Source: Bugula neritina (lineage: Eukaryota > Animalia > Bryozoa). From it: a stretch of 64,000 nucleotides of DNA. The position numbers and the translations under genes are program-made. Under the pieces are notes generated by a model. The model was not told where the DNA came from and did not search any database. It was given only the letters and a program-made list of their open reading frames with translations. This document shows, one piece after another, positions 39,706-64,000 of the stretch. Every line of letters starts with the position of its first letter. Within the stretch, counting starts at the first letter, position 1. Location of the stretch: assembly GCA_964035545.1 (NCBI GenBank), contig OZ037772.1, positions 3,253,538-3,317,537 of the forward strand. Direction: 5' to 3'.

Positions 39706-39729
39706 CTAGTAGTAGTAGTAGTAGTAGTA
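39330..39729. repeat. Compound (ACT)n then (TAG)n microsatellite
   Basis: Direct inspection; source of the poly-T, poly-S and poly-V ORFs. Confidence 0.97.
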
Positions 39730-41420: not shown

Positions 41421-43233
41421 TACTAATATATATACTACACAGTACTAATATATATACTATACAGTACTAATATATTATATACTATACAGTACTAATATAT
41501 TATATACTATACACAGTACTAATATATTATATACTATACATAATATATAATACAAGTACCTCTACAGCCTTGGCTGCCATATCGTCACATGCCACATATC
41601 ACTGTGGTTTGGGTATCGGCTCAATGATATCTTTAGATCGACTATAACACAAGAGAACACGTTGTGGAGGTCATTGTTAACAGACAGACTCACATAGTAA
41701 CAGTTCAACTCAACAGCATTGTAAAATATAGTGGATATGTTAATGGAGCTATTCTTTAGGAGAACAAGAGAGGACAACTTCTATTACATCGAGATCTGCA
41801 GCTATGAGTCATTTTACTTAATTTAATACACAAAGCTATATACCTCTAGCTTTTAGCTATTGTTCACAGTTGAGCTGCTAATTCAACATTTTAATGTAAG
41901 AAACTATACACAATAGCAGCTAAACTGTGAAAATAGCTAAGAACCAGATATATGGTGTGTACTAAACTAAGTAAAATGACTCACAAGTAAACATGACTAG
42001 AAAAAGTTCAGGATCTAACTGGACGTGTATGAAGAAAATGTAATGGAACCTGTAGAAATCTAACAAATTGGGATAAAATTGTAGAGAGAAGACGACTCAC
42101 CTACATACAGGAACTACCATAGGGTTGTCTTCCTTTCCTTTGTATAGCCCCAAGTCTTCCAACCTTTTATGAACACCTGCACATAAAACTTACACAGAGT
42201 ATAAATTGCTAATAGGCTCACACCTGTCACCTGCTTACAAATGTCACCTGCTCACACCTGTCACCTGTACACACCTGTCACCTGTACACAAATGGTATTA
42301 AACCACTAAAACCTATGTAGATCAATATTTTCTTGCTATTAAGTTGACTAATTGTGAAACAGCCAAAATAGGAAAATAAGACCTTGTAGTGCAGTGAGCA
42401 AGGCAAGTTCAAGCCATACAACTTCAACATGTTGCATTACAGAAGAAAGACCTGCTTCATTTTGGTAAATAACTATAAGTAATATTGGGAGTTACGCCAC
42501 TTATGAGTAACAACATGGAGTTGTGTTTCTTTTCATAAACGCAAAAAGGTAAAAGTTACTTGTTCCTTCGAGGTAGCATATATAATGCAAGGAAGAACCA
42601 TCTCAACTTAGAAATATGTCACACATTTAGGAGTTATGCCACCTCCTTGTCAGAAACACGGAATACTAGTTTCACACACCTTTTCATTTCCACAAACTCG
42701 CCGAAGTCTCCACATATTAACCCGTCATCGTCAATGATTGTGAGGAAGGGGAGTTTGTGTCAGAGGCCAACGTCGTAATCCTTGGGATCATGTGAGGGAG
42801 TTATCTTCACCGCCCCTATCGACAATTAGATGGGAAGTGAGAAGCTCTGAGGCTATGAATATTACAAACAGTACTCGTTGCTATACGAATAGACTCCAAT
42901 TTAGTTCTCCCTCCGTATCTCAGTAAGGGACCTGAAACCTCAATTCATGACACAGTAGAATTCTTACCATAGCAGAATACCATATTTAACACACGGATCT
43001 GTTAATTTAAACTATTTTGTCCCAATACACATAACATAAGTCACAAAACAAAGGACCAAGCCATTCTCATGACCTGGGGTATTTCATGAGAACTAGAAAC
43101 ATAAGATATAGTGGAAGCACTGCCCCAAACAAAACAAATCAAATGAAATGATAGTTTAGTGATGGAAATAATTAGTTAATAGTCTTTGAAAATAGTTGGG
43201 CCGGTCAACTTCTGAAATTACCATGTAAGAAAC

Positions 43234-44252
43234 ACAACAGGCTATGAATATACAGGACAACAGGCTATGAATATACAGGACAACAGGCTATGAATATACA
43301 GGACAACAGGCTATGAATATACAGGACAACAGGCTATGAATATACAAGACAACAGGCTATGAATATACAGGACAACAGGCTATGAATATACAGGACAACA
43401 GGCTATGACTATACAAGACAACAGGCTATGAATATACAGGACAACAGGCTATGAATATACAGGACAACAGGCTATGAATATACAGGACAACAGGTTATGA
43501 ATATACAGGACAACAGGCTATGAATATACAGGACAACAGGCTATGAATATACAGGACAACAGGTTATGAATATACAGGACAACAGGCTGTGAATATACAG
43601 GACAACAGGCTATGAATATACAGGACAACAGGCTATGACTATACAGGACAACAGGCTATGAATATACAGGACAACAGGCTATGAATATACAGGACAACAG
43701 GCTATGAATATACAAGACAACAGGCTATGAATATACAGGACAACAGGCTATGAATATACAGGACAACAGGCTATGAATATACAGGACAACAGGCTATGAA
43801 TATACAGGACAACAGGCTATGAATATACAGGACAACAGGCTATGAATATACAGGACAACAGGCTATGACTATACAGGACAACAGGCTATGAATATACAGG
43901 ACAACAGGCTATGAATATACAGGACAACAGGCTATAAATATACAGGACAACAGGCTATGACTATACAGGACAACAGGCTATGAATATACAGGACAACAGG
44001 CTATGAATATACAGAACAACAGGCTATGAATATACAGGACAACAGGCTAAGAATATACAGGACAACAGGCTATGAATATACAGGACAACAGGCTATGAAT
44101 ATACAGGACAACAGGCTATGACTATACAGGACAACAGACTATGAATATACAGAACAACAGACTATGAATATACAGGACAACAGGCTATGAATATACAAGA
44201 CAACAGGCTATGAATATACAGGACAACAGGCTATGAATATACAGGACAACAG
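43234..44252. repeat. 23-bp minisatellite, about 44 copies
   Basis: ACAACAGGCTATGAATATACAGG in tandem. Confidence 0.97.
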
Positions 44253-46685
44253 AGAACTCACAAAACCAAGATGGAGGACCTTATGATTAGTGTTTTACTT
44301 TAAGGACTTTATGCAGAGTTGTTGCCCCCTGATCAGGAAACGGCGGTAGGTGGAGGTAGGGTGCAGTAATGGAAAAATTGAGGAAAACATGTGTTCTAGA
44401 TTAGAAATATAGCACAAGAAGTTATTTTCTTGAAACTTCAACCCGCACCTTAAACCAAAATGCAATAATAAAATTAAAGAACTTAGGCTATCTCAAGTTC
44501 TCCACTACTGCTCCTAAGTGAGAAAGTGAGAATAGTTAAGAATAGGGAGTTGAGAGAATACTGGAGTTATTTCAACTGGCAGCAAGAGTCAGCCATTATT
44601 ACGTTGCTAAGCAACAAAGCTATTAGCGACATAGTTTCTAATCTAGTTGTGGCCACAATGATCTCTTCGTCAGAGTCTTCCACTTTATATGCAAAGGAAA
44701 GGAGAACTCCGAACTCCACTTTCTCCTTGTAGCCCGGCACAGAGAGCATAGTCCTTCCTGTCAACTCTACTTTGTCTACCTGCAATCAGTGATACAACTC
44801 TCTCAGACTATACAGGTCAAAGGTTAAACTGTAGTGTGTGCTTCTGAGTCACTGCATTCCGATTCTTCTCCATTAGTTCACATTGTGTGAGAGGAAAGGA
44901 AGCTCCTACGTATGAATTTGCGGTTGTGGTCTCATTGATGTAACTGTTACCAAACATTGCATGAGAAATCCATTCGCATAACACAAAAGCTTAGAAACAT
45001 AGTGATTGCTTCACATTATGATGGATTTTTCATTGGATGTTCGGGAGGTCAATCGAACTAAACCGCAACCACAGATCCGTTCGTATTCATCCGAAGATAT
45101 CAGAGATGGCAGAGTTGAGAGTACAGGACCAGTTGACCAGTCGGTTAGCTCTGTAGATTACACCTTTCTCGTGCATTCTGATAAACGCTTCGTTCACCGC
45201 TTTCACAGATTTCTAATAAACAATTATATATTAGTCATGTGTCAAGTGTAAACTGATTGGAAACAAGGCCTCATGATTAACCAATCATAGAGAGGATAAC
45301 ACACTGAGTCAGTAAACAGCCGACACGGCATATAGACTCCACTACTCAAACATAATATATGTATAGAGAGGATAACTCCTCACCTCATCCATAGTGAACG
45401 TAGTTCGGTCCCAGTCATAAGACCCGCCCACTTTCCTCAACTGATGGTAGATTCTGTCTCCTTTTCTATAGAAATTATATAATAACACTGACCAATCGTT
45501 GTGCTGCAAAACTTAGTTATATTAGCAACTTAAATAATGAGTCCAATGATAGAGTGTGATGAAGTAAACCTATATTTAACTTTTTGTATATTCAATTATA
45601 TATATAATTTTATCATATTATCGCTATTATATTATCTTATATCAAACTGTAGCAACTGCACACCAATAAGATAAAATAAAAACTCAAACCCGAATACTAA
45701 GTCGCTATGAAATGCATGTCAGGATAAAATATTCTCTTACTGGTTCTTCCAGTCCCACACTCGTCTCACAAACTCATCTCGTTCCAAATCGTGTCGAGTT
45801 TTATTCTCTTCTCTAGCGAGTTTTTTCTCGACGACAACTTGAGTGGCTATTCCTGCGTGATCACATCCGGGTACAAACAGTGTCACCTTCCCATTCATCC
45901 GGTGCCTGATAATACAACAGAACTGACACCTGCAGACACCTGACAACGCAAGCATATCAGACACCTGTAGATATTCTGGAAAGGTGCTGAGAGAAATATC
46001 TGTGGTTGAAAAAACATCAATATGATAGATGAATGACTTATGCCAACCGGTACTTAACACAAATTTTCTCAGCATTCAAAAAAGAATTAACAGGGGGATG
46101 TTCATAGCCTGTCTGTGGAATATCTCAAAGTGAGTTGGCAAGATGCCGAAATGTCATGTAATCACCACCAGAGGAATGGTGTCTACTGTTACATGCTATA
46201 AGCTACATACACCACCAGTTTAGTGACTAGGTAAGTACGGAGTTGTCTCATCTATATGAATGAACATCTTACCACCGAACTATCGCATCCTCAACCGCCC
46301 CCGCGAGGGCGTGTCCTAGGTGAAGAGTCCCGGTCACATTAGGGGGAGGGATCAGGATGATAAACTTCTCTTCAGGTGTGAGTTTCAGCACATCTCTACC
46401 TGTTACAAAGCAACCAATCACATCTCTCTCGGTTACAAAGTAAAAAGCAACCAATCACAGTACCTGTTACAACAGAGTAACAAATCACACCTCTACGTGT
46501 TAGAAGTAACCAATCATACATTATAGACTTTACTATGATGAGAAGTGTACCTTTGAGATTATACTCAGGTTTGAAGAATCCTTCCTTCTCCCACCAAGAG
46601 TACCAGGCAGCTTCCACATAGGACGGGGAGTAAGAATCAGGCATGGGACACGTCGTGTCTAGAATAATAGAAAACTATAAAGTAT

Positions 46686-47653: not shown

Positions 47654-50600
47654 CTACTTCAATGTATTTCTCCAAGAGACCAACTGAGCATCAGTGCTAA
47701 CTACAGTTAACAGACTATGGTTCTTCAATTCCCTCAAACCTAGTATATTAGACTTAGAACCTTTAATAACATACAGGTTAGTTACTGTTTTCTTGAAATT
47801 GCTTTCTAAAACAACCTCAGCTTTGCCCAACACTGAGAGCTGGGAGTTGTCGGCACTCTTCAAAACTCTATCACTTTCGTGAAGCTTAAGTGCTAATGTT
47901 TTACTTGTGTCTTCAGTAATTGTAGACACATCTGCACCAGTATCTAAAACAAACTCAATATTTCTATCATTAACACTAAGATTCTGTTTCCATGTTTCAG
48001 CTCTATCGTATAGTTCACTATCAATAAATCTAACCTTACTAGAGCTGACAGCTCTAGTTCTAGGTGATCTCCAAGAAGAACTATCTTTACTATCCACTGA
48101 CCATTCTCTATCTGAGCTACTACTCCTTTGACTTCTATAGTTACTTCTACTAGAGTAATCTTTGTCCTTGTAAGACCTACGCATTCTACAGTCTCTTGCT
48201 ATGTGGGCATGTTTTCCACATGCATAACATCTTATTTTTGGACAATTCCTAGCAACATGCTCAGGTTTATGACAAACATAACATAAACTGTCTGAACTGC
48301 TACTACTACTACTATTACTGCTAGCTCTATGTCTACTCCTATAGCCTGGAGATTTGTGGCGAGGATAATCTCGACTACTATCTCTAGAACTATATCTACC
48401 TTTATGTCTATCATTATCATAGTAAGATGACCTTCTGTCCGTTACTCTATCAGACTTAGTTCTAACTTCAGCTATGTTAGCAAAGTTATTATTCAAATTA
48501 GAACTACTAGATCTAACCTCAGAAACCATCGCAGCAGATTCTCTAGCAATATTGTGGTGGCTCGTGGAGCTACCAGCAACACAATACGCAAGGTTGCGTA
48601 TTGACCCGGAACAATGTATTAGCCAATTAACTAAGCTGTTTGATAAGTAATAGTAGCCGCTTCGCGCTACTAGCTCAGTTGAGGATAGTGCTGTAAATTA
48701 AATAGACGTGCGTATCATTACTGTTGTACATTGGATTTTATTATGTATTCTGGTATTAAATATAACAATATCTACTCGACTTAACTGGTGAAGTTTCTCT
48801 AGTGTTAAATAGACTCTCTTGGTGGCACATCAACCCTAAATCTGAAAACTATAACAGTGGTGGCAGCGGTGGGATAGTGTATATCAAAGATGGAGACTGA
48901 AAACGCTGGAATGCAACCACCCCCAGTAGAAGGTGAGCGTAGAAATGCTGTTAACCCTGTAAACTATGAAGGAGAAGAAGCTTATAGACATTACTTGAAA
49001 GCTCCCACCTTTACTGGGTCGGAAGATGTCGAACAATTTATACAAGAATTTAGAGAAGTAATGGAAGTTGCTCAATGGCCGCATAGAGTGGCCCTCATTC
49101 AATTGCGGAGAGCGGTGACGGAGCAAGCCAAGCCGTACGGAGTGGGAACGGACGTAAACGGCATACTGGCTGCGCTGCGGGCCCGTTTTGGCACCTCCGT
49201 CATAGACGCTAGGACCAAGCTGGAGAGATTGTGCCGCACCCCGCGGACCTCGCTGCAAGAACATGCCGCGACGGTGAAGAAGCTGGTGCAGATTGCATAT
49301 AGCGATCTGCCAGCACAACACCAAGAGCGTTACACCTATGACGCCTTTGTCCAGTCCCTAAACGACCTGGGCCTAGACCATCACCTACGAGCTAAAGGGA
49401 TAACCAGAATAGAGGATGCCCTGAAGGCTGGAGAAGCTTACCTGTTGGCTACCCAAATGCATCGAGCACAGCGGAACCCACCAGTAGTTGGAGTCAGCGC
49501 TGCTCGGGCTACGACAGGCTCCGAAGCCCTCCCGCTGGAAGCCGAAGTGGACCGTATGGTAGAGATGCTGGGACAATTGGTAACCATTCTGGCCGGTGCT
49601 GGCCCCGGTCAGGCCTTGCGGATGCCCCCAACACCTGTGGGGCAAGGCTGGAGTAGCGCTGATCAGGACCAGAGACAGAAAGGACGACCCCAATACCAGG
49701 GGGCGTTAAACTGTCACGGCCCGCGGACATTCTCCCTCCCCGCGGGCCGCAACTAAAGGAGTATGGTGGAACACGCCGTCGTCTGTCCGTACGGACGCGG
49801 CGGAACATCCTACCCGAGTGGCAGGTACCATGCAGGACTAGTAGGCCCGCACAACGGCCCAGTACCTTTTCCCTGCCACTCGCTAACCGGTTTCACCGGT
49901 TACCTCGGGAGGAGGAGCCCGCCACTGAAATGGAGCCAGAAGGCCCAGTGGAGAGGCCCAAACCCCGCCGGCACCAACCTCGCCGCCGGAAGCCCCGTAA
50001 ACCACGGGTGAAACCCCCGCCGTCCTGTCAAACCAGGGCAGCACATGCGGGGGGGGGGTGAAAGTACAACCACATGGAGAGAGCTATTTCCTACCCGGAA
50101 AGGTGGCCGGCAACGCCGTCACTTTCCTGCTCGACTCCGGTTGTACTACCAACCTTCTCAGCCGTAGAGTCTTTGAGGCACTGCCCCGCCGGGACAGGGA
50201 TAGAGTACGACCGTATACTGGAGAACATGGCACCCTGGCAGACGGGTCATGTATCCCCTTTTATGGTATTATCGAGCTCCCTGGGCGTGTCCGAGATCAG
50301 GCTGTACAGGAGACCTTTATCATAGGTCAACTGGAAGAAGATGCTATCCTCGGAATGCCCTTCTTGAAGCAGCACCAGTGCCGAATAGATTTCAGCAAGT
50401 CGGTGGTGCTGATGGGCGGGCGAGAACTCGCCTGTGTGGATAAGTTTGGGCGTCCCCTGGTGGGCGGTGTTCAGGTAGTTCGAAACTGCACCGTACCCGG
50501 ACGCTCCAGAGCTACTATCCACTGCCGAGTGAACAGCAACCGGATAGCCAGGCTCGGGGTCGTTGAAAGCGCGCACGAAAAGATCCAACTCGCCAGTAGT

Positions 50601-53600
50601 TTAAACCGACTAACTGAGCGAGGGGAGGTCTTAGTGCAGTGCGTCAACCCCTTTACCGAGCCCATTGAGCTCCCAGCTGGGTCAATGCTGGGCCGGTTCC
50701 ATTCCGTCCAGGAAGAGGACGTGGGCCCGTCGCTGGGTGACGCGACGGAGGCACCCCCTCGACACCCTATTCAGGGACGAGGGGCAGTCCCAACACATCT
50801 CCGGGAGTTATACGAAACAGCCAGTGGCGGCTGCGCGAGTAACAGAGAACGCCAAGCTATGGCCAAGTTACTACGCGACTACGGTGATGTGTTCAGTAGC
50901 GGAGAGCATGACGTGGGACTGACTGGAATTGTCAGACACGAAATACCGCTGACTGCAGGGACAGTCCCTGTCCGGCAACCCACGCGCAGGCTGGGGCCGG
51001 AGAAAGAGAAGGAGGTTAGCCGACAAGTACGGGATCTTCTGGACCGGGGACTGATAGAGCCCGCCCATAGTGCGTGGAGCTCGCCAGTCGTACTGGTCCG
51101 GAAGAAAGACGGCAGTTGGCGGTTCTGTGTGGACTACCGCAAACTCAATAGCGTAACCATACAGGACGCCTACCCTCTACCTCGTATTGACGAGTCATTG
51201 GACGCCCTAGCCGGCAGCAAGTACTTCAGTACGTTAGACTTGCTAAGCGGATATTGGCAGGTTCCTCTGAGTCCCGACGCCCAAGAGAAAGCGGCGTTTA
51301 TCACACGGGACGGTTTGTGGAAGTGGAAGGTGCTGCCCTTCGGGTTAACCTCCGCCCCAGCCACCTTCCAGAGGCTGATGGAACAAGTCCTTAGCGGACT
51401 CCATTGGAAGACACTGCTGGTCTACCTCGATGATGTCATCGTAATCTCTCCAGACTTCGAGACACATGTCAGTCGTCTGCAGGAGGTTTTCGAGAGACTC
51501 CGAGGTGCCGGTCTTAAGCTCAAACCTTCCAAGTGCGCTCTGTTGCAGCCGGAGGTCAAGTACCTGGGGCACGTTGTCGGTCGAAACGGCGTGGCAACGG
51601 ATCCCGAAAAGGTACGGGCAGTAGAAGACTGGGTCACCCCCCAAGACTTGACCGGACTCCGGGCTTTCTTGGGGCTGGTAGGGTATTACAGGCAATACAT
51701 ACCAGACTTTGCGGGCATAGCCCAGCCGTTAAACCGGCTTACCGCAAAGGGAGTGACGTGGCAGTGGACTCCAGTCGAACAAGAAGCGTTCGACCACCTC
51801 AAGGGCTGCCTCCTAACGGCGCCCATCTTGGCCTACCCAGACCCCACTCTGGAGTACATCCTAGACACGGACGCCAGTGACCAGAATGTTGGCGCTGTGC
51901 TGTCACAAGTGCAGGAAGGCCGAGAAGTAGTAGTAGCCTACTACAGCAAATCTCTCTCTCCCGCTGAACGAAACTACTGCACTACCCGCAAGGAGCTGCT
52001 GGCAGTAATCAAGTCAGTGAAGCACTTCAGACCATACCTATATGGCAGGAAGTTCCGACTGCGTACGGATCATGCCTCGCTGATCTGGTTGTGCAGGAGA
52101 GCAGAGCCCTCCAGTCAGGTCGCCCGGTGGCTCGAAATCCTAGCTGAATTCTAGTACCGGATCGAACACCGACCGGGCAAGAGACACAGCAATGCGGATG
52201 GGTTGAGTCGCCGACGTGACGGAGGTTGCAAACAGTGTCTCAACATCGAGAGGAGGGATGGAGGTCCCCCACGATGCGAGTTGGAGACGCTGGCTCATCA
52301 CGGAGCACCGTTTGACTGGGATCAAGGTCAACTCAGGCAAAGAGTTGATGAGTCCCCGGAGGATGTACAAAACCTCCGCGCCAACCCTGTACTGGCCGGT
52401 AATGTTCGAGAGCTGAAGAAGCTCCAAGAGGAGCTGCCTGGAGTCGTGGCAGACATCTACCGGGCCAAAAGGGAAGGGCGACGACCCAGCGAGGAACGCA
52501 TACGACAGGGATGCGCCGAGTTCCGGCTATACTGTCAGCGTTGGGACTCGCTGCGGATCGGGCAGGATGGGTTACTAACCATCTCTCTAGCTGCCAGCGG
52601 CAGACACCCGGAAAGGAAGAGGGTAGTCTGCCCCACAGCCATCCGCCGTGAGTTGATTTGGGATACTCACAAGCAGGCCCACGCAGGGGTCAAGCGAGTG
52701 ATATCCAAATTACGACTCCGGTGGTATTGGCCGCAGATGGAGCGTGACGTCCGGCTCAGAGTCAAACAGTGTGAGATCTGCCAGGCCAGTAAGCATAGCC
52801 GCCCCCCTGGTGAAGCAGGACGGCGGAGGCTATATGCTGGTAGGCCCTGGCAAGTAGTCGCTGTAGACCTGGTCGGACCCATGCCCCTGACCCCCAGAGG
52901 CAATAATTGGATCCTAGTACTAACCGACCACTTTACTAGGTGGGCGGATGCTCTGGCTATCCCAGATGCATCAGCCCCAACAGTGGCCAGGGCACTAGAC
53001 CAACATGTATTCTGTTATTTTGGGCTTCCCGAACAGATACACACTGATCAAGGCGCTCAATTCCAGTCTCAACTGATGAGCGACCTTTGCCACCTCTGGG
53101 GAGTAAATCAGAGCAGGACCACCCCCTACCACCCTCAAGGTAACGGGGTGGTGGAGCGCAACAACCGGATGCTAGGTGATGCGCTCCGGAGTCTCCTCCT
53201 TGGACGAGGTCAAGAGGAATGGGATACGGTGTTGCCGCAAGTCATGCGTGCATACCGTAGCACCCCACACACCAGTACTGGTGAGACCCCAAACCTCTTG
53301 ATGCTCGGGAGAAAGACTCGTGTCCCTGACCATCTCACCTATCACGTTCCAGAGCAGGATAACTCAGTCCACGAGTATGCCAGTGAACTAGTGGAATGGA
53401 TGAAGGCCGCACACGAGATACTGCGTCAACAGCAGTGGAAGGTGCGGCACGAAGATTCCGATGAACCACCCCTCTATCAAAGAGGAGATAAGGTGTGGAT
53501 GGTCAATTACCGTAGGCGCCGCGGACAGGCTGATAAGCTGAAGCCTAAGTTCGTAGGCCCCTACGTGGTCGTCGAGGCTATGCCCAATCATACGTACAAG

Positions 53601-56578
53601 ATTGAGCGCTCAGGACAGGTGTCTATCCAGAATGAGTCTCGCTTGAAACCGTATTGGGCTAGCCCTGACGGAGTGGGAGAAGCCCCCCCGTTGTTAGAGC
53701 CCAGGAGGCAGACAACGACGCGCGGGCGACGGCGGCATGGACCTGAATACGAAGTGGTCATACCGCGGGAGGAAAACTTGGTGAGAGAGGAGCGGCAGCT
53801 TCTACCAACAGAAGCGTGTCCGCCACCGCCAAGTCTAATTCCATCACTTCCAGAAACCGAGCCGGTTCCGGAAGTGCAAACCCCCACGGAGGGAGGGGCT
53901 CCATCCGGAGAACAAGAAGAGGTGACCACTAACGGTGAAGTAGAGACGCCATTTGAGGCCCCTACTAACGAACCGGCAAGCGTGTCACCCCCCCTAGAAA
54001 GGGGACAGCGTACGAGGAAACCCCCACCGTATTTGAAAGACTTCATATGTGACTGCATCAGAAGCGGCGCATATGAAAGTCTAGGGGAAAACCGTACGAT
54101 AAAATGTTGGAGTTGTGAACCCCACGCAAATATCAACTTTTGCGAGGGCGGAATAGTGGGAGGAATTAATGCGCGTAAAGCAAATAGTTCCGACCTCGTG
54201 CCTCAGAAACGATGCTCAGCCTTTTCTTATGCTGACATCGCCAAAGGCAGACGTATCCCACAACCAGCTCCAACCTTACCAAGAACGTTGAGTATGGACA
54301 TTAATACCGAGTTCCCAGGTAAGCCAGTATAAGTCTTGTATTCCTATTCATGGAAACGGGCTCGATGCCAGTAAATTCTGAACTAATTCAGCAGATTGAA
54401 TCAGAATTACTGGGAACCACGTTTCATGTGAATGACGATGAAGACACTGTAATGACCGACGGTCTGTTAGACCTGGAGCTAGACACTGTTCTTGGTCAGT
54501 CCACACATGATTCATCAGTTCCTCGAGTGCATTCCAAAAGCTGTGACTCTCAGGCTAGCAACGGTCGACAGTCACTAGAATTATGTTGTAAAGATCCACC
54601 GCGATCTAACAATAATTCTACTTTTGTAGACACACTCGCACCCGTCTCTACGGACATGCCTTCTCTAGAGATGGCATGGGACCCAGAGCCGGCCCCAACA
54701 ACTCCTACCACCAGGCAACTACCACCCCAGTTGGAAGCAACCTCCAACTGGATTACCCCTGCCACAGAGAGGGAAATCAGGACCCATCAAGGAGGTGAGA
54801 GTAATCGTGAATGCAACCTCTGCCAGCAGCGATTCACAACCCACCGCAGACTAAAGGTGCACTTGCCACAGCACTACATCACCACTTTCTGCCCTTGCGG
54901 AGAATATAGCTATAACCGTGATTACCTACTGCGGCACCAACGTACTATGCAGTGCTATCAAGGACATGTCTATGAAGTAGACGAATCATCATATCCTGCC
55001 TTTCTCAACGCCATCAAACCACTCATCACTGACTCAGCTCGGCTATCTCGCCTGGAGCAAGGCTTCCCTTCCCCGCGACCTATCATCTCTGGAGCCACAG
55101 ATAAACCTACACAGTCTGCTAACTCTCCACCTCACAGTCCTATACGCATGCCGCATACCTTTCCTCGTGTCGTACTACAGAGAGTAGACACAAATGCGTA
55201 TACACTCCCTCCTCCTCTTCCATCCTCAGAGCGGAAACGACACAGGCAACCAACTTCCTCTCGCTCGTCCCCCTGGGCCCGTAACCTACGTGAGGTAGAA
55301 GCTAGGGCGCAGGACTTGGAGCAAGAAGTCTACAGGCTGGCCCCACGAATACAGGCAGCCTCCAGTGAACTCAAATACTTACAGGAGTCGATTAAACGCA
55401 TGAAGCGTGCGGCCCGCAGTTAACTCGAGTCTACCTACCACTCCCTACTACTCATTCCCCTACCTCTCTGTGGCATTCCCTACCGTAATGGTGGCACGTA
55501 CTCTATATGTAGATAGGACCTTCTCTTGCTTATTACTTAGTGCACGATATATATATCTGTATATTTTTTACCAGTTGTTGTTTTTTTTATATACTTTTAT
55601 GCTGTTCTCTTACCCCCCAACGAAGTATACGTTTTTTTATGTGAATCTTATTTTATCAGAAAGTGGGCTTTCTGCTGGAGGGGGCAGTGTGGTGGCTCGT
55701 GGAGCTACCAGCAACACAATACGCAAGGTTGCGTATTGACCCGGAACAATGTATTAGCCAATTAACTAAGCTGTTTGATAAGTAATAGTAGCCGCTTCGC
55801 GCTACTAGCTCAGTTGAGGATAGTGCTGTAAATTAAATAGACGTGCGTATCATTACTGTTACACATTGGATTTTATTATGTATTCTGGTATTAAATATAA
55901 CAATATCTACTCGACTTAACTGGTGAAGTTTCTCTAGTGTTAAATAGACTCTCTTGGTGGCACATCAACCCTAAATCTGAAAACTATAACAATATTCCTA
56001 GTCTTCAAAATATCAGACAACGCTTTCCAAGTGATATTTTCATTAAGCATAAGTTGTCTTCTAAGATATTCATCTCTTAAACCAACTACTGCCATACTAA
56101 TAGCAAACCTTTGTCTAAGGTCTTCCACATTAGCCCCTTCAACAAATCCTAAATTTCTACTATGTTTCTCAACACGTAGCAAATACTCTAACTCATCTTC
56201 GCCGCATGTTTGAGACAAAGTTGCTGCCTTAACCCAAGCCACATGAACATTTTCTGTTTTCTCATAGTGACCTTTCAACAAGTTTAAAGCATCATTATGA
56301 GCATTATCATCATTCCTTTCAAGATCAAATCCTGAAGATTGTAACACATCAATACCCTCATCTCCAATGGTATTGAGCAAAGCTAGAAGCTTAGCTTCAC
56401 CTCTAAATCTATTTACTGCAATATTGGACAGCATTTCAGTACCCATTTCAAGGGTTGCTAATCGAACTGACAGGTTGTATTTTACCAACCATTTCTTAAA
56501 ACAATCACTCTGATTATCGGAGCTCAAAACTAACTTAGGAAACCGATTGAGGTCGGTGAACCTAGTGTTAGTTGCCAT
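47654..56578 (-). CDS. gag: Gag (two CCHC knuckles) plus aspartic protease, split by the Gypsy insertion (segments 55992-56578 and 47654-48548)
   Basis: Removing 48553-55991 and one ATAT gives the continuous frame ...KTRNIARESAAMVSEV...; CYVCHKPEHVARNC, CYACGKHAHIARDC, LDTGAD. Confidence 0.9.
48858..48875 (+). promoter_or_regulatory. Primer binding site, tRNA-Leu type
   Basis: TGGTGGCAGCGGTGGGAT, 18 nt complementary to the metazoan tRNA-Leu 3' end ATCCCACCGCTGCCACCA. Confidence 0.88.
48890..49756 (+). CDS. gag: Gag, 288 aa, lacking an intact zinc knuckle
   Basis: ATG just after the PBS; capsid-type motif APTFTGSEDVEQFIQEF. Confidence 0.9.
   Translation: METENAGMQPPPVEGERRNAVNPVNYEGEEAYRHYLKAPTFTGSEDVEQFIQEFREVMEVAQWPHRVALIQLRRAVTEQAKPYGVGTDVNGILAALRARFGTSVIDARTKLERLCRTPRTSLQEHAATVKKLVQIAYSDLPAQHQERYTYDAFVQSLNDLGLDHHLRAKGITRIEDALKAGEAYLLATQMHRAQRNPPVVGVSAARATTGSEALPLEAEVDRMVEMLGQLVTILAGAGPGQALRMPPTPVGQGWSSADQDQRQKGRPQYQGALNCHGPRTFSLPAGRN
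49705..49749 (+). promoter_or_regulatory. -1 ribosomal frameshift signal
   Basis: G_TTA_AAC in gag phase, 5-nt spacer, perfect 10-bp stem CGGCCCGCGG/CCGCGGGCCG; the -1 frame is homologous to the pol N-terminus of copy 3. Confidence 0.8.
49705..54332 (+). pseudogene. pol: Pol (PR-RT-RNaseH-IN) with two lesions
   Basis: LDSG, YLDD, DASD, HHCC, GPY motifs; frameshift in the G10 run 50049-50058 and TAG at 52152-52154 where copy 3 has TCG. Confidence 0.92.
54350..55423 (+). CDS. Accessory ORF3: C2H2-type zinc-finger plus C-terminal coiled-coil protein; probably expressed by splicing 48890-48932 to 54630-55423 (278 aa)
   Basis: CNLC-x12-HLPQH then CPCG...HQRTMQC; heptad helix LREVEARAQDLEQEVYRL; lies between pol and the 3' LTR; homologues in the other two copies. 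Confidence 0.85.
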   Translation: METGSMPVNSELIQQIESELLGTTFHVNDDEDTVMTDGLLDLELDTVLGQSTHDSSVPRVHSKSCDSQASNGRQSLELCCKDPPRSNNNSTFVDTLAPVSTDMPSLEMAWDPEPAPTTPTTRQLPPQLEATSNWITPATEREIRTHQGGESNRECNLCQQRFTTHRRLKVHLPQHYITTFCPCGEYSYNRDYLLRHQRTMQCYQGHVYEVDESSYPAFLNAIKPLITDSARLSRLEQGFPSPRPIISGATDKPTQSANSPPHSPIRMPHTFPRVVLQRVDTNAYTLPPPLPSSERKRHRQPTSSRSSPWARNLREVEARAQDLEQEVYRLAPRIQAASSELKYLQESIKRMKRAARS

Positions 56579-57049
56579 TATGATCTGAATGTGAGCGTGA
56601 TATAAAATTTAAAATTTTAATTTTCACTACCAGAAAGCTTAATTATTTTAATAACCCTGTTAATCCTTAAACCTAATATTAAATTTGAATTTATCAAATC
56701 TAATACTTTAACCGAATTATGAATAATAATATTAATATTTGAATTTCACTGTCACTCCACTAACTACTACTCTTACTCTACTGATAACACAAAATAAACT
56801 CCACAAATGTATCTCGAATAAACTTTTATAGTTACTCTCCACTGTTTGCCTCCCCTCTATTATTTGATTCTGCTCCACTATTCACTTTTCTCCACTATTT
56901 GATTCTTCTCCGAACTCCACTATTTGATTCTGCTCCACTCTTTATTTCTTCTCCACTATTTGATTCTTCTCCGAACTCCACTATTTGATTCTGCTCCACT
57001 CTTTATTTCTTCTCCACTATTCACTCCTTCTCCGCTGTTGACTGTCTAC

Positions 57050-57068: not shown

Positions 57069-58216
57069 TGCAATATACGGTCCTACTTACTCGACAGTCT
57101 GTGAAAGAGTTCCCTCATGCAGTCTTTACTTTTACTTTCACTCTCACAATAGCCAATATCCAAGCCGTACAAGCTGGTAGGAAATCCGGTAGGGAATCCG
57201 AATGCTTGTAAGGCAGTTAGCCAATCGTCTCAGGTTAGCTTGTAGCTTATCTGCTAAAGACTATAAACCGCATTATATTCCAATAGACAGATATCTTAAT
57301 ACTAATAATATAAACTAATAGCTCAGTATTGCCTTAGTTATGCGTGGGGGTTCAGTGATAAAACTCCTATAAACCACACAGTTCGATAATGAAAGACTGT
57401 GACTTTTCACGAACAGACATCTCATCTCTGATTCTAATGAAAAATCACGAAATTTTCAGACAAACGATACTGCATTTCAACTTTGTGACTATCACATGAT
57501 AATAATCATTGTCATTTGAAAGATTCTGCTAAAATCGAAATGCCAATGTTAATCACAAGGTCAACCATAAATGACTCAGTCTGATGACTGACGGTTATGC
57601 TTAATGATTAATTAGTAATATTGTTAAGATTTCCAGATTTAGGGTTGATGTGCTATCCAGAGAGTCTATTTATCTACTATAGAACTACACCAGGCTAAGT
57701 CGAGTGAACGAGTATATTTTATACACAACTATACATTATAAAACACGATACATTATTTCCAAACAAGTTACACATCTAATCTATTTCACACTCTAGCTTC
57801 GACTGAGTTAGCAGCGGGAAACTACAATTGCTGCTAACTATCAACTACGCTAATTGGCTATCCATTGTTCCGGGTCAATTACGCGACCCTACATGTTGTG
57901 CTGCTGGTAGTTCCACGAACCACCACACCGCCCCCACCAGCAGAAAGCCATCTTTCTGATATATAAATAAAAAAAACATTCAATAGTAATTGCATACATC
58001 AGTGGACAAAAATAATACATAATATACAGGAAGAGACATAATAATAGACAGAGTCATTATAACGATCCGTTGCATACAATTGGCCAGCTGTAGATAGACG
58101 AGGAATACTAGCTAGCTGTGGTGTTAGACAGGGGATAACCTGTTAAGCAGTCAAACATTTACATGACATCTGGGCTTCTCCCAAGAGGCGGAGTTGGAGT
58201 ACTCCGAGTAGTCTAA

Positions 58217-59004
58217 CTAGAGTCCTTGTTGGGCACGCCGGTGCTTGGCTTGGCATGTACGCAGTTTCCGTTTCATACGGCATACGGATCCCTTTTGCTG
58301 GAAGAGTCCTGTTGTAGTGTTAAGTAGATCTGGTGCCAGCTGGGTGAACTCTTCTTGTAATCGTAGGAGGCGTTCTTCTACTGTGGCTAGTCGTACCGGG
58401 TCTGGGGACGGTGTCCGTCTGCGGCGTAAGGGTGGACTGGGGGAACTGGTCCGTCTCTTCGCCGGGGTAGGGGAGATCTCTCCTTCTTCTGGATATGTAA
58501 TTTCCTCGGGGGTGTATGTAATTTGAGGGCGGTCAGACACCAACGGGGATTGTTGGCGAGCGTTGTCTAACACACGTTGGAACCCCGAGGATAGAACGGC
58601 TAATAGCATGGCTTTCTTTACCAGAGGTCGTATATATGTGAGGAACTCCGGGTACAGCTTAGCGTCGACCACATAGTTTTCTCCAGGGAAACAGCCCGCC
58701 GCTCTGTGTCTGGTGACGGGGTAGGGGTACACATCATTGTACCCGCAGGGGCAGAAGGTCAGTAGGAGATGAGCATTGACGTGTAGTTTAAGGGAGCGGT
58801 GAGAGGCGCAATCTTCACCACAGATCTGGCATCTCGTCCGTCCTCTGGACCCCCAGGCTGTTTCTATTTCTTCTTCGGTTTGTGGAGACACCCACCGCCA
58901 ACGGCGGCGTAGTGGCTCAGGCCGATCACCACTAGCATAGTCCTCCGGATACGGAACGGGAAGTGTTCTATCCCGTACCCTGGTTGTAGCGAGTCGAGTG
59001 TAAT
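58217..59004 (-). CDS. Accessory ORF3 homologue (zinc finger plus coiled coil), 3' exon
   Basis: CQIC-x12-HVNAH, FCPCG...HRAAGC, LATVEERLLRLQEEF; no ATG start upstream of the fingers; frame open from acceptor TACTAAC...TTTTTCAG at 59005. Confidence 0.82.
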
Positions 59005-59317
59005 CTGAAAAAGTTTCAACAGTGTTAGTACAGTATACTGCTGTGTTGTCAGCTTGAACAGCTTGGCAACTCCTAATTCAGTTACCTCGTAGAGATTAAT
59101 GATAGTGAATAGTCAGATAGAACCGTATTGCAATGAGATTATAAAAATCTCTAAGTCAAACTGAGTTCTTACTACGGTATTTCACTAACCTATCTCCAGC
59201 TCGATTGACTCAGTGAGTCAGAGCTGAGCGATGCAATCTAGTTTCGTATTAAGATATAGTTAACTCACCCCACGATCTGTTGTCGTAAGACATACTGAAT
59301 ATGTGAAATGGTTTGAA

Positions 59318-62300
59318 CTACTGCTTAGAAACACGTCTACTCTTGACTGCATCAGCGTATGAAAAGATCGAGCAACGTGGTTGAGGTGCGTGATTAAGAC
59401 TTTGTGCACCCGGCGGATGAATTTTATTTCTATTTCCGCCGATGTAAAAGTTGATATTCCCGTGGTGTTGACAACTCCCACATTTGCTCGATTCTTTTCT
59501 CGTACGGCTTTCCCCTAGACTTTCATGCGTGCCGCTTTTAACGCAGTCACATACGAAGTCCTTCAAGTATGCGGGGGGTTGCCTCGTACGCTGTCCCCTT
59601 TCTAGGGGGGGTGACACGCTTGCCGGTTCGTTAGTAGGGGCCTCTAATGGCGTCTCTACTTCACCGTCAGCAGTCACCTCTTCTTGTTCTCCGGATGGAG
59701 CCCCTCCCTCCGCCGGGGTTTGCACTTCCGGAACCGGCTCGGTTTCTGGAAGTGATGGAATTAGACTTGGCGGTGGCGGACACGCTTCTGTTGGTAGAAG
59801 CTGCCGCTCCTCTCTCACCAAGTTTTCCTCCCGCGGTATGACCACTTCGTATTCAGGTCCATGCCGCCATCGCCCGCGCGTTGTTGTCTGCCTCCTGGGC
59901 TCTAACAACGGGGGGGCTTCTCCCACTCCGCCGGGGCTAGCCCAATACGGTTTCAAGCGAGACTCATTCTGGATAGATACCTGTCCTGAGCGCTCGATCT
60001 TGTACGTATGATTGGGCATAGCCTCGACGACCACGTAGGGGCCTACGAACTTAGGCTTCAGCTTATCAGCCTGTCCGCGGCGCCTACGGTAATTGACCAT
60101 CCACACCTTATCTCCCCTTTGATAGAGAGGTGGTTCATCGGAATCTTCGTGCCGCACCTTCCACTGCTGTTGACGCAGTATCTCGTGTGCGGCCTTCATC
60201 CGTTCCACTAGTTCACTGGCATACTCATGGACTGAGTTATCCTGCTCTGGAACGTGATAGGTGAGATGGTCAGGGACACGAGTCTCCCTCCCGAGCATCA
60301 AGAGGTTTGGGGTCTCACCAGTACTGGTGTGTGGGGTGCTACGGTATGCACGCATGACTTGCGGCAACACTGTATCCCATTCCTCTTGACCTCGTCCAAG
60401 GAGGAGACTCCGGAGTGCATCACCTAGCATCCGGTTGTTGCGCTCCACCACCCCGTTACCTTGAGGGTGGTAGGGGGTGGTCCTGCTCTGATTTACTCCC
60501 CAGAGGTGGCAAAGGTCGCTCATCAGTTGAGACTGGAATTGAGCGCCTTGATCAGAGTGTATCTGTTCGGGAAGCCCAAAATAACAGAATACATGTTGGT
60601 CTAGTGCCCTGGCCACTGTTGGGGCTGATGCATCTGGGATAGCCAGAGCATCCGCCCACCTAGTAAAGTGGTCGGTTAGTACTAGGATCCAATTATTGCC
60701 TCTGGGGGTCAGGGGCATGGGTCCGACCAGGTCTACAGCGACTACTTGCCAGGGCCTACCAGCATATAGCCTCCGCCGTCCTGCTTCACCAGGGGGGCGG
60801 CTATGCTTACTGGCCTGGCAGATCTCACACTGTTTGACTCTGAGGCGGACGTCACGCTCCATCTGCGGCCAATACCACCGGAGTCGTAATTTGGACATCA
60901 CTCGCTTGACCCCTGCGTGGGCCTGCTTGTGAGTATCCCAAATCAACTCACGGCGGATGGCTGTGGGGCAGACTACCCTCTTCCTTTCCGGGTGTCTGCC
61001 GCTGGCAGCTAGAGAGATGGTTAGCAACCCATCCTGCCCGATCCGCAGCGAGTCCCAACGCTGACAGTATAGCCGGAACTCGGCGCATCCCTGTCGTATG
61101 CGTTCCTCGCTGGGTCGTCGCCCTTCCCTTTTGGCCCAGTATATGTCTGCCACGACTCCAGGCAGCTCTGCTTGGAGCTTCTTCAGCTCTCGAACATTAC
61201 CGGCCAGTACAGGGTTGGCGCGGAGGTTTTGTACATCCTCCGGGGACTCATCAACTCTTTGCCTGAGTTGACCTTGATCCCAGTCAAACGGTGCTCCGTG
61301 ATGAGCCAGCGTCTCCAACTCGCATCGTGGGGGACCTCCATCCCTCCTCTCGATGTTGAGACACTGTTTGCAACCTCCGTCAGGTCGGCGACTTAACCCA
61401 TCCGCATTGCTGTGTCTCTTGCCCGGTCGGTGTTCGATCCGGTACGAGAATTCAGCTAAGATTTCGAGCCACCGGGCGACCTGACTAGAGGGCTCTGCTC
61501 TCCTGCACAACCAGATCAGCGAGGCATGATCCGTACGCAGCCGGAACTTCCTGCCATATAGGTATGGTCTGAAGTGCTTCACTGACTTGATTACTGCCAG
61601 CAGCTCCTTGCGGGTAGTGCAGTAATTTCGTTCAGCGGGAGAGAGAGACTTGCTGTAGTAGGCTACTACTACCTCTCGGCCTTCCTGCACTTGTGACAGC
61701 ACAGCGCCAACATTCTGGTCACTGGCGTCCGTGTCAAGGATGTACTCCAGAGTGGGGTCTGGGTAGGCCAAGACGGGCGTCGTTAGTAGGCAGCCCTTGA
61801 GGCGGTCAAACGCTTCTTGTTCGACTGGAGTCCACTGCCACGTCACTCCCTTTGCGGTGAGCCGGTTTAACGGCTGGGCTATGCCCGCAAAGTCTGGTAT
61901 GTATTGCCTGTAATACCCTACCAGCCCCAAGAAAGCCCGGAGTCCGATCAAGTCTTGGGGGGTGACCCAGTCTTCTACTGCCCGTACCTTTTCGGGATCC
62001 GTCGCCACGCCGTTTCGACCGACAACGTGCCCCAGGTACTTGACCTCCGGCTGCAATAGAGCGCACTTGGAAAGTTTGAGCTTAAGACCGGCACCTCGGA
62101 GTCTCTCGAAAACCTCCTGCAGACGACTGACATGTGTCTCGAAGTCTGGAGAGATTACGATGACATCATCGAGGTAGACCAGCAGTGTCTTCCAATGGAG
62201 TCCGCTAAGGACTTGTTCCATCAGCCTCTGGAAGGTGGCTAGGGCGGAGGTTAACCCGAAGGGCAGCACCTTCCACTTCCACAAACCGTCCCGTGTGATA

Positions 62301-63889
62301 AACGCCGCTTTCACTTGGGCGTCGGGACTCAGAGGAACCTGCCAATAGCCGCTTAGCAAGTCTAACGTACTGAAGTACTTGCTGCCGGCTAGGGCGTCCA
62401 ATGACTCGTCAATACGAGGTAGAGGGTAGGCGTCCTGTATGGTTACGCTATTGAGTTTGCGGTAGTCCACACAGAACCGCCAACTGCCGTCTTTCTTCCG
62501 GACCAGTACGACTGGCGAGCTCCACGCACTATGGGCGGGCTCTATCAGTCCCCGGTCCAGAAGATCCCGTACTTGTCGGCTAACCTCCTTCTCTTTTTCC
62601 GGCCCCAGCCTGCGCGTGGGCTGCCGGACAGGGACTGTCCCTGCAGTCAGCGGTATTTCGTGTCTGACAATTCCAGTCAGTCCCACGTCATGCTCTCCGC
62701 TGCTGAACACATCACCGTAGTCGCGTAGTAACTTAGCCATAGCTTGGCGTTCCCTGTTACTCGCGCAGCCGCCACTGGCTGTTTCATATAACTCCCGGAG
62801 ATGTGTTGGGACTGCCCCTCGTCCCTGAATAGGGTGTCGAGGGAGTGCCTCTGTCGCATCATCCAGCGACGGGCCTACGTCTCCCTCCTGAACAGAGTGA
62901 AAACGGTCCAGCATCGACCCAGCCGGGAGCTTGATAGGCTCGGTAAAGGGGTTGACGCACTGCACTAAGATCTCCCCTTGCTCAGTCAGCTGATTCAGAC
63001 TGCTGGCAAGTTGGATCTTTTCGTGCGCGCCTTCAACCACCCCGAGTCCAGAGATCCGGCTACTATTCACCCTGCAGTGAATGGTAGCCCGGGAGCGGCC
63101 TGGTATGGTACGGTTGCGTACCACTTGCACACCTCCCACTAAAGGGCAGCCAAACTTGTCGACGCAGGCGAGTTCCCGCCCGGACATCATCATTGCAGAT
63201 CTGCTAAAATCTATGTGACATCCGTGCCGTTTAAGGAACGGCATCCCGAGGATAGCATCCTCCTTGAGCTGACTGACGATGAACGTCTCTTGGATCGTTT
63301 GATCGCGGACTCGTCCCGTCAGCTCAATTATACCATAGAAGGGAAGGCACGACCCGTCAGCTAGGGTGCCGTATTCCCCTTCGTATGCTTCCATCTCGCC
63401 CCTGACCCTAGCACTGAGGGTGTCGAAGAGTTGGCGGCTTAAGAGGTTTGTGGTACAGCCCGAATCAATGAGAAAAGTAACAGCTTTGCCTTCCAGTTTA
63501 CCGGGCAAGAAATAGCTGTTCCCATGGGGCTGCACCTGAACTCTCCCTTCAGGCCTTACTCTCGCAGGGAGTACCTCCCTCGCTTTGGGTCGCGAAGGAG
63601 GTCTCTTGGGACGGTGATAGGTAGGCCTCGGGGGTGCCGAGGCTAGATTCTCAGCTACCTTTGTGTGCTCCCATCCAGATTCTTGGACTTGTAGCCCTGT
63701 GAATCTGTTGTGAAGGGGCATAGAAAAGGCAGCCGCGGGGCGCAGCCCTTTGCTGGTCCGTCGTGGCTGTTGCCACTGTTGGTTGCCAGTACGCGGTACC
63801 CGTCTGGGTGACCTGCGTTTCTTCTTCCCTAGAGGTTTCATCGTCGGCCCGCGGAAGGTGGGAACATCTGCGGGCCGCGGTAGTTTAAC
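59318..63889 (-). CDS. pol: Intact Pol polyprotein (PR-RT-RNaseH-IN) starting at the -1 slippery site
   Basis: 1543-aa open frame with IDSG, YLDD, DASD, HHCC, DDE-type core and GPY; GTTAAAC at 63883-63889. Confidence 0.96.
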   Translation of the reverse strand, partial: VKLPRPADVPTFRGPTMKPLGKKKRRSPRRVPRTGNQQWQQPRRTSKGLRPAAAFSMPLHNRFTGLQVQESGWEHTKVAENLASAPPRPTYHRPKRPPSRPKAREVLPARVRPEGRVQVQPHGNSYFLPGKLEGKAVTFLIDSGCTTNLLSRQLFDTLSARVRGEMEAYEGEYGTLADGSCLPFYGIIELTGRVRDQTIQETFIVSQLKEDAILGMPFLKRHGCHIDFSRSAMMMSGRELACVDKFGCPLVGGVQVVRNRTIPGRSRATIHCRVNSSRISGLGVVEGAHEKIQLASSLNQLTEQGEILVQCVNPFTEPIKLPAGSMLDRFHSVQEGDVGPSLDDATEALPRHPIQGRGAVPTHLRELYETASGGCASNRERQAMAKLLRDYGDVFSSGEHDVGLTGIVRHEIPLTAGTVPVRQPTRRLGPEKEKEVSRQVRDLLDRGLIEPAHSAWSSPVVLVRKKDGSWRFCVDYRKLNSVTIQDAYPLPRIDESLDALAGSKYFSTLDLLSGYWQVPLSPDAQVKAAFITRDGLWKWKVLPFGLTSALATFQRLMEQVLSGLHWKTLLVYLDDVIVISPDFETHVSRLQEVFERLRGAGLKLKLSKCALLQPEVKYLGHVVGRNGVATDPEKVRAVEDWVTPQDLIGLRAFLGLVGYYRQYIPDFAGIAQPLNRLTAKGVTWQWTPVEQEAFDRLKGCLLTTPVLAYPDPTLEYILDTDASDQNVGAVLSQVQEGREVVVAYYSKSLSPAERNYCTTRKELLAVIKSVKHFRPYLYGRKFRLRTDHASLIWLCRRAEPSSQVARWLEILAEFSYRIEHRPGKRHSNADGLSRRPDGGCKQCLNIERRDGGPPRCELETLAHHGAPFDWDQGQLRQRVDESPEDVQNLRANPVLAGNVRELKKLQAELPGVVADIYWAKREGRRPSEERIRQGCAEFRLYCQRWDSLRIGQDGLLTISLAASGRHPERKRVVCPTAIRRELIWDTHKQAHAGVKRVMSKLRLRWYWPQMERDVRLRVKQCEICQASKHSRPPGEAGRRRLYAGRPWQVVAVDLVGPMPLTPRGNNWILVLTDHFTRWADALAIPDASAPTVARALDQHVFCYFGLPEQIHSDQGAQFQSQLMSDLCHLWGVNQSRTTPYHPQGNGVVERNNRMLGDALRSLLLGRGQEEWDTVLPQVMRAYRSTPHTSTGETPNLLMLGRETRVPDHLTYHVPEQDNSVHEYASELVERMKAAHEILRQQQWKVRHEDSDEPPLYQRGDKVWMVNYRRRRGQADKLKPKFVGPYVVVEAMPNHTYKIERSGQVSIQNESRLKPYWASPGGVGEAPPLLEPRRQTTTRGRWRHGPEYEVVIPREENLVREERQLLPTEACPPPPSLIPSLPETEPVPEVQTPAEGGAPSGEQEEVTADGEVETPLEAPTNEPASVSPPLERGQRTRQPPAYLKDFVCDCVKSGTHESLGESRTRKESSKCGSCQHHGNINFYIGGNRNKIHPPGAQSLNHAPQPRCSIFSYADAVKSRRVSKQ

Positions 63890-64000
63890 CCCTGATTTAG
63901 GAAGGGACAATATCGGCGGAAATGTCCTTGATTTCCGCACTCCCAGCAAAAACTGACTGTTTCTCCCTGTGGCGGCGCCGATGGCCGCATGGGCTCTGGG
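63838..64000 (-). CDS. gag: C-terminus of Gag of copy 3 with CCHC knuckle (partial)
   Basis: Minus-strand translation ...FCWECGNQGHFRRYCPFLNQGLNY...TGA at 63838-63840. Confidence 0.85.
   Translation of the reverse strand, partial: PEPMRPSAPPQGETVSFCWECGNQGHFRRYCPFLNQGLNYRGPQMFPPSAGRR

Follow-up and report, generated by a model that had tools for sequence, protein, structure and literature searches.

The bryozoan Bugula neritina carries, within a 64,000-nucleotide stretch of contig OZ037772.1 (assembly GCA_964035545.1, positions 3,253,538 to 3,317,537 of the forward strand; hereafter "the window"), three copies of one Gypsy family of long terminal repeat (LTR) retrotransposons, here called copies 1, 2 and 3. 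Downstream of pol these elements have a third open reading frame (ORF), ORF3. We find that ORF3 is a real gene under purifying selection inside the element copies. Judged from sequence comparison, it is an undescribed accessory gene family with a new, unnamed zinc-finger domain that appears to be shared with bryozoan host genes. As to function, we give roughly even odds (about 50%) to the reading that ORF3 is a nuclear regulator that favors production of the element's own full-length RNA, and that it is likely made from a spliced message.

ORF3 is a selected gene between pol and the polypurine tract

Copy 2 is a complete Gypsy copy. Its ORF3 extends from its own ATG at 54350 to 55423 on the plus strand (357 amino acids) and sits between the end of pol (54332) and the polypurine tract (55677-55687), where an earlier reading of the bare sequence (the original prediction) had placed it. 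That reading had also assigned ORF3 to all three copies. This holds for copy 2 and for copy 3, in which the frame is open from 58217 to 59077 on the minus strand. Copy 1 retains only the C-terminal half (3701-4210, plus strand; 85% identical to copy 2): a deletion fuses the pol tail to approximately codon 188 of ORF3, and both finger 1 and the CxC of finger 2 are missing. Copies 2 and 3 were described as strongly divergent, and they are (30% identity, BLASTP E-value 4e-27). All of the conserved motifs listed for them are present in both, except that the last spacing, RH-x4-C in copy 3, is RH-x5-C in copy 2.

Copies 1 and 2 have 168 ORF3 codons in common, which give a nonsynonymous rate (dN) of 0.078 and a synonymous rate (dS) of 0.72, a dN/dS of 0.11 (bootstrap 95% interval 0.06-0.17). 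Four of five control frames gave dN/dS values of 1.6-2.5, and the antisense frame that shares third positions gave 0.13, as expected. The purifying selection proposed earlier is therefore observed, with a ratio that is not near 1. Low dN relative to dS was also seen in pairs of related loci, namely L027/L028 (0.010 and 0.109), L001/L002 (0.011 and 0.050) and L008/L024 (0.28 and 1.45); two other pairs were uninformative, with too few changes (L019/L022) or saturation (L038/L063).

The pol genes of copies 2 and 3 share 93% DNA identity (dS of 0.04 in the integrase core), whereas their ORF3 proteins are 30% and their LTRs 73% identical. By this comparison, pol has been swapped between subfamilies, with ORF3 staying with its LTR. 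Separately, summed contig depth in run X2 is 3-5 times as high over pol (50600-54000) as over gag and ORF3. This would fit a single pol shared by several subfamilies that differ in gag, ORF3 and LTR, although contig depth is a poor measure.

A packed finger pair and a C-terminal heptad helix

The conserved core of ORF3 (residues 134-240; 54749-55069, plus strand) comprises a W-x4-T helix, two fingers, a Y-x-V-D strand and further helices, and was modeled with a pLDDT of 95.4 and a pTM of 0.87. Finger 1 is regular (C155, C158, H171 and H175; C-x2-C-x12-H-x3-H) and finger 2 has the form C-x-C-x12-H-x5-C (C181, C183, H196 and C202). In the model, the linker between the fingers is a five-residue strand, and flanking helices and strands pack the finger pair into one domain. 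Across 115 aligned sequences, conservation is at least 94% at C155, C158, H171, H175, C181, C183, H196, V210 and D211, and 90% at W134. The basic residues of the recognition helices are also kept (R/K166 in 83%, R167 in 70%, R/K169 in 75% and R190 in 73%). Residues 30-81 of the core model, which include both fingers, align to DNA-bound C2H2 pairs with weak Z-scores of 3.0-3.4 (rmsd 2.5-2.9 A over 50-57 residues), among them Kaiso (Z 3.4, rmsd 2.8, 57 aligned) and ZBTB38 (Z 3.3, rmsd 2.9, 52 aligned). The earlier assignment of ORF3 as a zinc-finger protein thus agrees with the predicted fold.

Outside the core, ORF3 is predicted to be disordered except for a C-terminal heptad helix (residues 308-356; 55271-55417, plus strand), which follows a Pro/Ser linker with a basic patch. 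All 13 a/d positions of this helix are hydrophobic in copy 2. It had been noted in the window copies and proves to be family-wide, recurring in 42 of the 66 family proteins that extend at least 90 residues past the core, compared with 5% in shuffles. Eight loci (L008, L011, L023, L024, L038, L046, L063 and L067) have a divergent finger pair and, in place of the heptad helix, a long, very acidic C-terminal tail, which resembles an activation domain.

Neither the copy 2 nor the copy 3 protein has a hydrophobic segment (best 19-residue Kyte-Doolittle means of 0.46 and 1.24, respectively; 5 of 178 family proteins reach 1.6), so ORF3 is, by these sequence measures, not an errantivirus-type envelope, in line with the original prediction that it is no envelope. 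A Pfam scan of ORF3 likewise gave no envelope match.

No Pfam family reaches its curated cut-off for ORF3. The zf-C2H2 family scores 15.6 bits against a cut-off of 25.2, and zf-C2H2 and zf-C2H2_4 match 8 and 9 of 115 members, respectively, at E ≤ 0.01. Foldseek searches with both models found no solved or viral structure at E ≤ 0.001, and the original prediction's failure to recognize a described Gypsy accessory gene stands. Matches set aside were those of a wide structural search with the full ORF3 model, which recovered generic helices only, and those in the ESM Atlas, which were limited to unnamed clusters and generic C2H2 families. A literature survey that covered few subscription journals, no supplements and neither Repbase nor GyDB turned up no description of the ORF3 family and no retrotransposon with an ARS2 motif.

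The module marks a Gypsy clade and recurs in bryozoan genes

A word search identified 59 unnamed relatives among 1787 candidates. An exhaustive search of representatives of 50%-identity clusters gave 184 matches at E ≤ 0.001 (150 of them listed) and 58 at 1e-10, and 174 of the first 200 proteins score at least 40 bits on the core profile. Chance finger or low-complexity matches account for the multi-finger host proteins and the single RCC1-repeat protein in this set of 184, which were discounted. Also rejected were the results of searching longer proteins with the core profile, a weak search that missed the Pol fusions: 15 of its 16 matches were mammalian Wiz proteins, found via a generic finger only (13-14 bits). 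We also scanned viral and metagenome contigs using ORF3 alignments, and viral contigs using the integrase; neither approach yielded anything that could be confirmed.

The core follows the integrase in frame in 9 of the 120 listed integrase homologs (148 were found), and in 9 of the 12 listed homologs whose tails are at least 399 amino acids long. We fetched 92 loci by integrase alignment, 33 of which included the integrase end and at least 1500 bases downstream. Where integrase identity is at least 44%, the core profile matches in 11 of 22 loci (7 of 15 lineages). Either the profile or a finger-pair pattern, the latter defined after looking at the tails, is found 3′ of the integrase in 12 of these 15 related Gypsy lineages; the pattern has no match in 191,376 reverse-strand residues. 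None of the 11 distant loci (10 lineages, integrase identity <44%) has the finger module. Among the 13 loci with a profile match, the module is fused in frame in six, in frame behind a stop in three and in another frame in four, and some of the behind-stop or other-frame loci are decayed copies. A separate frame or separate ORF is seen in copies 2 and 3 and in L014, L026, L027, L038, L046 and L063. Given its presence in related lineages and absence from distant ones, whether fused or free, we take the module, on this sequence evidence, to be a marker of one Gypsy clade. Clade members without the finger pair, and thus natural controls, are L034 and L049, which run into a second gag (tandem elements), and L050, which has the C-terminal helix alone.

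Among 30 proteins looked up, the named homologs are bryozoan only. They include XP_067940963/4 and XP_067944745 of Watersipora subatra and EB796_000763 and 000764 of Bugula neritina, the latter at two adjacent loci. Three bryozoan homologs have an N-terminal domain in common, as judged by eye, and resemble genes of the host. P0060, P0201, P0078, P0342, P0343 and P0131 have either two cores or an additional shared N-terminal domain; they are mostly annotated as bryozoan genes and represent a candidate domesticated family. The bryozoan host-annotated proteins are scattered among element proteins, but the AU test does not reject placing them in one clade (p-AU 0.48). The nearest host-annotated homolog is 43% identical in the core. 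At this level of sequence divergence recent host capture of ORF3, which would have refuted the original prediction, is excluded, and both domestication and ancient capture are compatible with the data.

ORF3 is probably expressed from a spliced message

The open frame of copy 3 has no ATG upstream of the core, so translation from ATG to stop cannot be how both copies make the product. In copies 2 and 3 alike, a phase-1 intron is predicted to follow an ATG exon of 25 nt at the pol end, and the ORF3 product common to both is therefore probably a spliced one of approximately 270 amino acids. In copy 2 (plus strand), the ATG exon (54294-54318) lies in the pol frame and ends at the top-scoring donor (54318|54319, ranked 1 of 417). 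The predicted 311-nt intron (54319-54629) has a CTAAC branch point and the top acceptor (1 of 570) and stays open in the ORF3 frame from 54323 onward; exon 2 is predicted to begin at 54630 (codon 94). In copy 3 (minus strand), the predicted ATG exon (59293-59269) lies in the pol frame 24 nt past the pol stop, and the 264-nt intron (59268-59005) has a TACTAAC branch point and is closed by stops in each of the three frames, with exon 2 predicted from 59004. The donor ranks 1 of 369 and the acceptor 21 of 496. The length of the ATG exon, the phase and the branch point are common to the two copies despite their 30% protein identity, and the ATG is equally far from the last conserved pol motif in both. 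The predicted spliced products have 272 (copy 2) and 270 (copy 3) amino acids.

A second in-phase donor of copy 2 lies 14 codons into gag (48932|48933) and ranks second of 417 GT sites. In close relatives that match the invariant SNNNS, the following residue pair could be written Y-A-G in 38 of 38 cases, and we read SNNNS and the next residue pair as a putative branch point and acceptor. An intron that survives reverse transcription would imply that unspliced RNA is the form that is copied. Three short RNA contigs cover the exon side only, and are too few to count.

Some family members carry an ARS2-recruitment-type motif

The sequence [ED][ED]GE[ILV] has been defined as an ARS2-recruitment motif in published work on ARS2 partners (PMC9402713; bioRxiv 10.1101/2023.07.25.550453). 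Several ORF3 relatives have EEGEL, EDGEI or EEGEV in an acidic disordered arm, and copy 3 has EEGEI after the core (58475-58489, minus strand). The motif was detected in 12 of 128 distant proteins, compared with 0.56 expected from local shuffles (maximum 3 in 500), and in 13 of 130 when the window copies are included (about 0.6 expected); only 1 of 111 Pol controls has it. Specificity is evident at single positions, with G in 13 of 22 [ED][ED]xE[ILV] words (background 4.6%), E in 13 of 17 and I/L in 13 of 16. In the core tree its carriers are spread over scattered branches. Of 26 loci examined, 7 have the motif, in fused as well as free forms, and the unfused ORFs that carry it are L026-L028 and copy 3.

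Possible roles of ORF3

The reading that ORF3 is a nuclear regulator of its own element draws on what was observed, namely the gene and its selection, its family, its place 3′ of the integrase, its staying with the LTR and the motif enrichment, and on what is predicted, namely the fold, a finger geometry suited to double-stranded DNA and the intron. The intron and the ARS2-type motif go beyond the original prediction, as do the in-frame fusions to integrase in relatives and the bryozoan host-annotated homologs. Under this reading, an early spliced mRNA of about 270 codons, starting from the ATG exon at the pol end or from the in-phase gag donor, would encode the protein. The helix would dimerize it, and the fingers would hold it on the provirus, at the LTR or nearby chromatin, while the acidic disordered arm would recruit host transcription or RNA-sorting factors. 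In many lineages the recruit could be ARS2 of the cap-binding complex, bound via [ED][ED]GE[ILV]. Nascent element RNA would thereby avoid early termination and nuclear decay and would be exported. The logic would be that of a Tat/Rev/CERV-like feedback loop on a different fold, and a module in frame with Pol would also travel in the particle. A bolder version, which we offer only tentatively, is that a whole clade of marine-invertebrate Gypsy elements mimics ARS2 effectors. A provirus-bound dimeric finger protein would use EEGE(I/L) to capture the cap-binding complex, so that nascent element RNA is exported instead of being terminated early and degraded by the exosome, the pol-ORF3 intron would act as an early/late switch, and bryozoan hosts would have kept copies of the domain.

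Several observations weigh against the regulator reading. The TGEKP linker is absent from all 130 family proteins and position +6 of finger 1 is hydrophobic; together with the weak structural Z-scores, this leaves sequence-specific DNA reading only putative. Adjacency by itself would also account for the linkage of ORF3 to its LTR. The splice matrices were approximate, and no spliced joint was found in the contigs of two runs (one RNA, one other). Relatives do not generally have a strong acceptor directly before an ATG (5 of 14, compared with 4.1 expected). Moreover, the intron of copy 2 stays open in the ORF3 frame, and its variation resembles that of coding sequence (6 synonymous and 6 nonsynonymous variants, 7 of 12 at third positions; the exon has 11 and 9), so the long unspliced form of 357 amino acids may also be used in copy 2. 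The ARS2-type motif was spotted by eye before its enrichment was tested. It is absent from copy 2 and all 57 of its close relatives, and from P0095, a close relative of copy 3; it is thus, in the sequences compared, a recurrent option and not a defining trait of the family. Finally, in-frame fusion to Pol is common, both among the listed integrase homologs (9 of 120, and 9 of the 12 with tails of at least 399 amino acids) and among loci with a profile match (6 of 13).

Such fusions are what would be expected if the module were a C-terminal domain of the integrase that, like a chromodomain, steers insertion via DNA or chromatin. This integration tether is the main rival explanation, which we consider possible but unlikely. 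The ARS2-type motif would then tether the complex to transcription start regions, and in the window subfamily splicing at the pol end would make the Pol fusion, as the copy 2 donor lies in the pol frame. The presence of ATAT after all three copies fits an integration tether. However, a 4-base AT-rich target is a property of integrases from elements without such an ORF. Chromodomains do occupy the same place in chromoviruses, according to published descriptions (PMC12440569, PMC13524379). Against a tether, a stop separates pol from the ATG exon in copy 3, the module is in a different frame in several lineages, the ARS2-type motif travels with unfused ORFs, and the fused forms have an internal Met and an acidic arm like those of the free forms (by eye).

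We find it harder still to favor a strict RNA export factor of the Rev/CERV type, whose fingers would bind a structure in the unspliced genomic RNA and which would oligomerize on that RNA. An element that keeps strong splice sites must export unspliced RNA, and in the Gypsy element Cer1 this is reported to be the task of CERV, a nuclear protein that is made by splicing and has a Cys loop and a leucine zipper (PMC10309623). The ARS2 partners PHAX and NCBP3 are described as export factors (bioRxiv 10.1101/2023.07.25.550453), and the finger linker of ORF3 is non-canonical. Yet the best structural matches of the finger pair are DNA-bound arrays, no export signal was identified in ORF3, and the hairpin that the copies share ahead of the polypurine tract has a folding energy no better than that of shuffled sequences (z -0.2 to -1.1).

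A last idea, which we consider very unlikely, is that the elements carry ORF3 as a passenger taken from a host, or that the gene serves the host and not the element. It could draw on the Bugula neritina and Watersipora subatra annotations, the shared N-terminal domain or double core of some of these proteins and their unrejected single clade. Against it stand the selection inside element copies, the spread of the module through one Gypsy clade (12 of 15 lineages) and a nearest host-annotated protein just 43% identical in the core, and the passenger version is largely refuted.

The elements and their surroundings

Copy 2 has the features of Ty3/Gypsy (Metaviridae) elements, with LTRs, a primer-binding site, a polypurine tract and the pol order protease, reverse transcriptase (RT), RNase H, integrase. 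Its 5′ LTR (48553-48856, TG...CA) is preceded by the target-site duplication ATAT (48549-48552) and followed by a primer-binding site (48858-48874), which we take to be of the tRNA-Leu type; the same motif starts many related loci. The ORF in the gag position (48890-49756) has no Pfam match and holds the predicted phase-1 donor described above. The pol ORF (50001-54332) encodes protease, RT, RNase H, integrase and an SH3-like domain plus a low-complexity tail, and is broken by one in-frame stop (52152-52154). The 3′ LTR (55688-55991) directly follows the polypurine tract, is followed by ATAT (55992-55995) and differs from the 5′ LTR at two positions. All of these features are on the plus strand. 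Pfam scans of pol and ORF3 gave no match to chromodomain families at E ≤ 1, and the element is thus not placed among chromoviruses.

The 3′ LTR of copy 1 (4488-4792, plus strand) is 91% identical to the copy 2 LTR. Copy 3 lies on the minus strand, with its pol (59318-64000) open to the window end and a 3′ LTR at 57622-57927. Both LTRs are followed by ATAT. The sequence ATATT follows all three copies (4793-4797, 57617-57621 and 55992-55995, the last in line with the ATAT duplication of copy 2), and these flanks indicate a strong local target preference.

A 7-bp inverted repeat stands directly before the polypurine tract in all three copies (55657-55674, 4457-4474 and 57941-57958), with changes in the loop only. 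Judged by eye, the pol tails of several lineages have in common, ahead of ORF3, a short motif resembling [ST][YF]A-x-[AI]-[AVL]-K, seen around 54228-54245 and 59344-59361 and in P0229, P0248 and L013. Copy 2 sits inside the gag-protease region of a second LTR element on the minus strand (47654-48697 and 55940-56608), with a zinc knuckle and protease on one side and a weak PNMA match on the other, and its empty site was seen in contigs (joint 48546-55990). Elsewhere in the window there are long tandem arrays at 5480-6800, 37130-37710, 39270-39800, 40660-41600 and 43070-44300, with units of 17, 35, 9-15, 16 and 23 bp, respectively. A 453-codon open frame at 17223-18584 (minus strand) has no Pfam match at E ≤ 1.

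Comparison with known systems

By the features tested, ORF3 belongs to none of the known systems with which we compared it; CERV is closest in logic, and chromodomains and rotifer ORF3s are closest in position. Gypsy elements are usually seen as gag-pol with an optional envelope or chromodomain, and regulators of the Tat/Rev kind are generally regarded as typical of complex retroviruses, CERV being a demonstrated exception. If ORF3 is a regulator, a clade-wide, selected finger protein with its own intron would show complex regulation to be widespread among invertebrate elements. Together, ARS2 and its partners direct nascent RNA to either export or decay, and one partner, ZC3H18, is reported to survey endogenous retroviral RNA (PMC13476778). 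A transposon-encoded ARS2 motif, if it acts as such, would be a direct counter-measure to this sorting.

Like ORF3 in our reading, the CERV protein of the Caenorhabditis elegans element Cer1 is an accessory nuclear protein whose mRNA is spliced; it has a putative zinc site, a helix of the leucine-zipper type and a basic patch, and it is required for genomic RNA export (PMC10309623). In that published description, CERV has 517 amino acids, exons shared with gag, H, M and G domains, a C4-type loop and no obvious homolog outside nematodes (PMC10309623). ORF3 is set apart from this account by different motifs, by its C2H2-type pair and by its position 3′ of pol.

Chromoviruses, like relatives of ORF3, are described as having a small folded module that ends the integrase, often in the Pol frame (PMC12440569, PMC13524379); in the ORF3 family this place is taken by a finger pair and heptad helix without a chromodomain match, often in a separate or putatively spliced ORF. 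The LTR retrotransposons of bdelloid rotifers also have a non-envelope third ORF after pol, and such ORF3s are stated to be typically expressed from spliced messages (PMC5408684). The bdelloid proteins reported there differ in being GDSL esterases, DEDDy exonucleases, or transmembrane or coiled-coil proteins, and the word "zinc" occurs nowhere in the main text of that paper (PMC5408684).

The ARS2 effectors Red1, ZFC3H1, ZC3H4, ZC3H18, NCBP3, PHAX and FLASH are described as carrying the motif in a disordered acidic region, and several combine it with zinc fingers and a dimerizing coiled coil (PMC9402713; bioRxiv 10.1101/2023.07.25.550453). They are host proteins with other finger types, whereas in the ORF3 family the motif is found in a minority and ARS2 binding is putative. 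Lastly, the finger pairs of the Krueppel-type proteins Kaiso, ZBTB38, ZBTB20 and SALL4 superpose on the ORF3 core model (rmsd 2.5-2.9 A over 50-57 residues), from which ORF3 differs in its C-x-C-x12-H-x5-C second finger, its five-residue strand linker in place of TGEKP and the predicted packing of both fingers into one domain.

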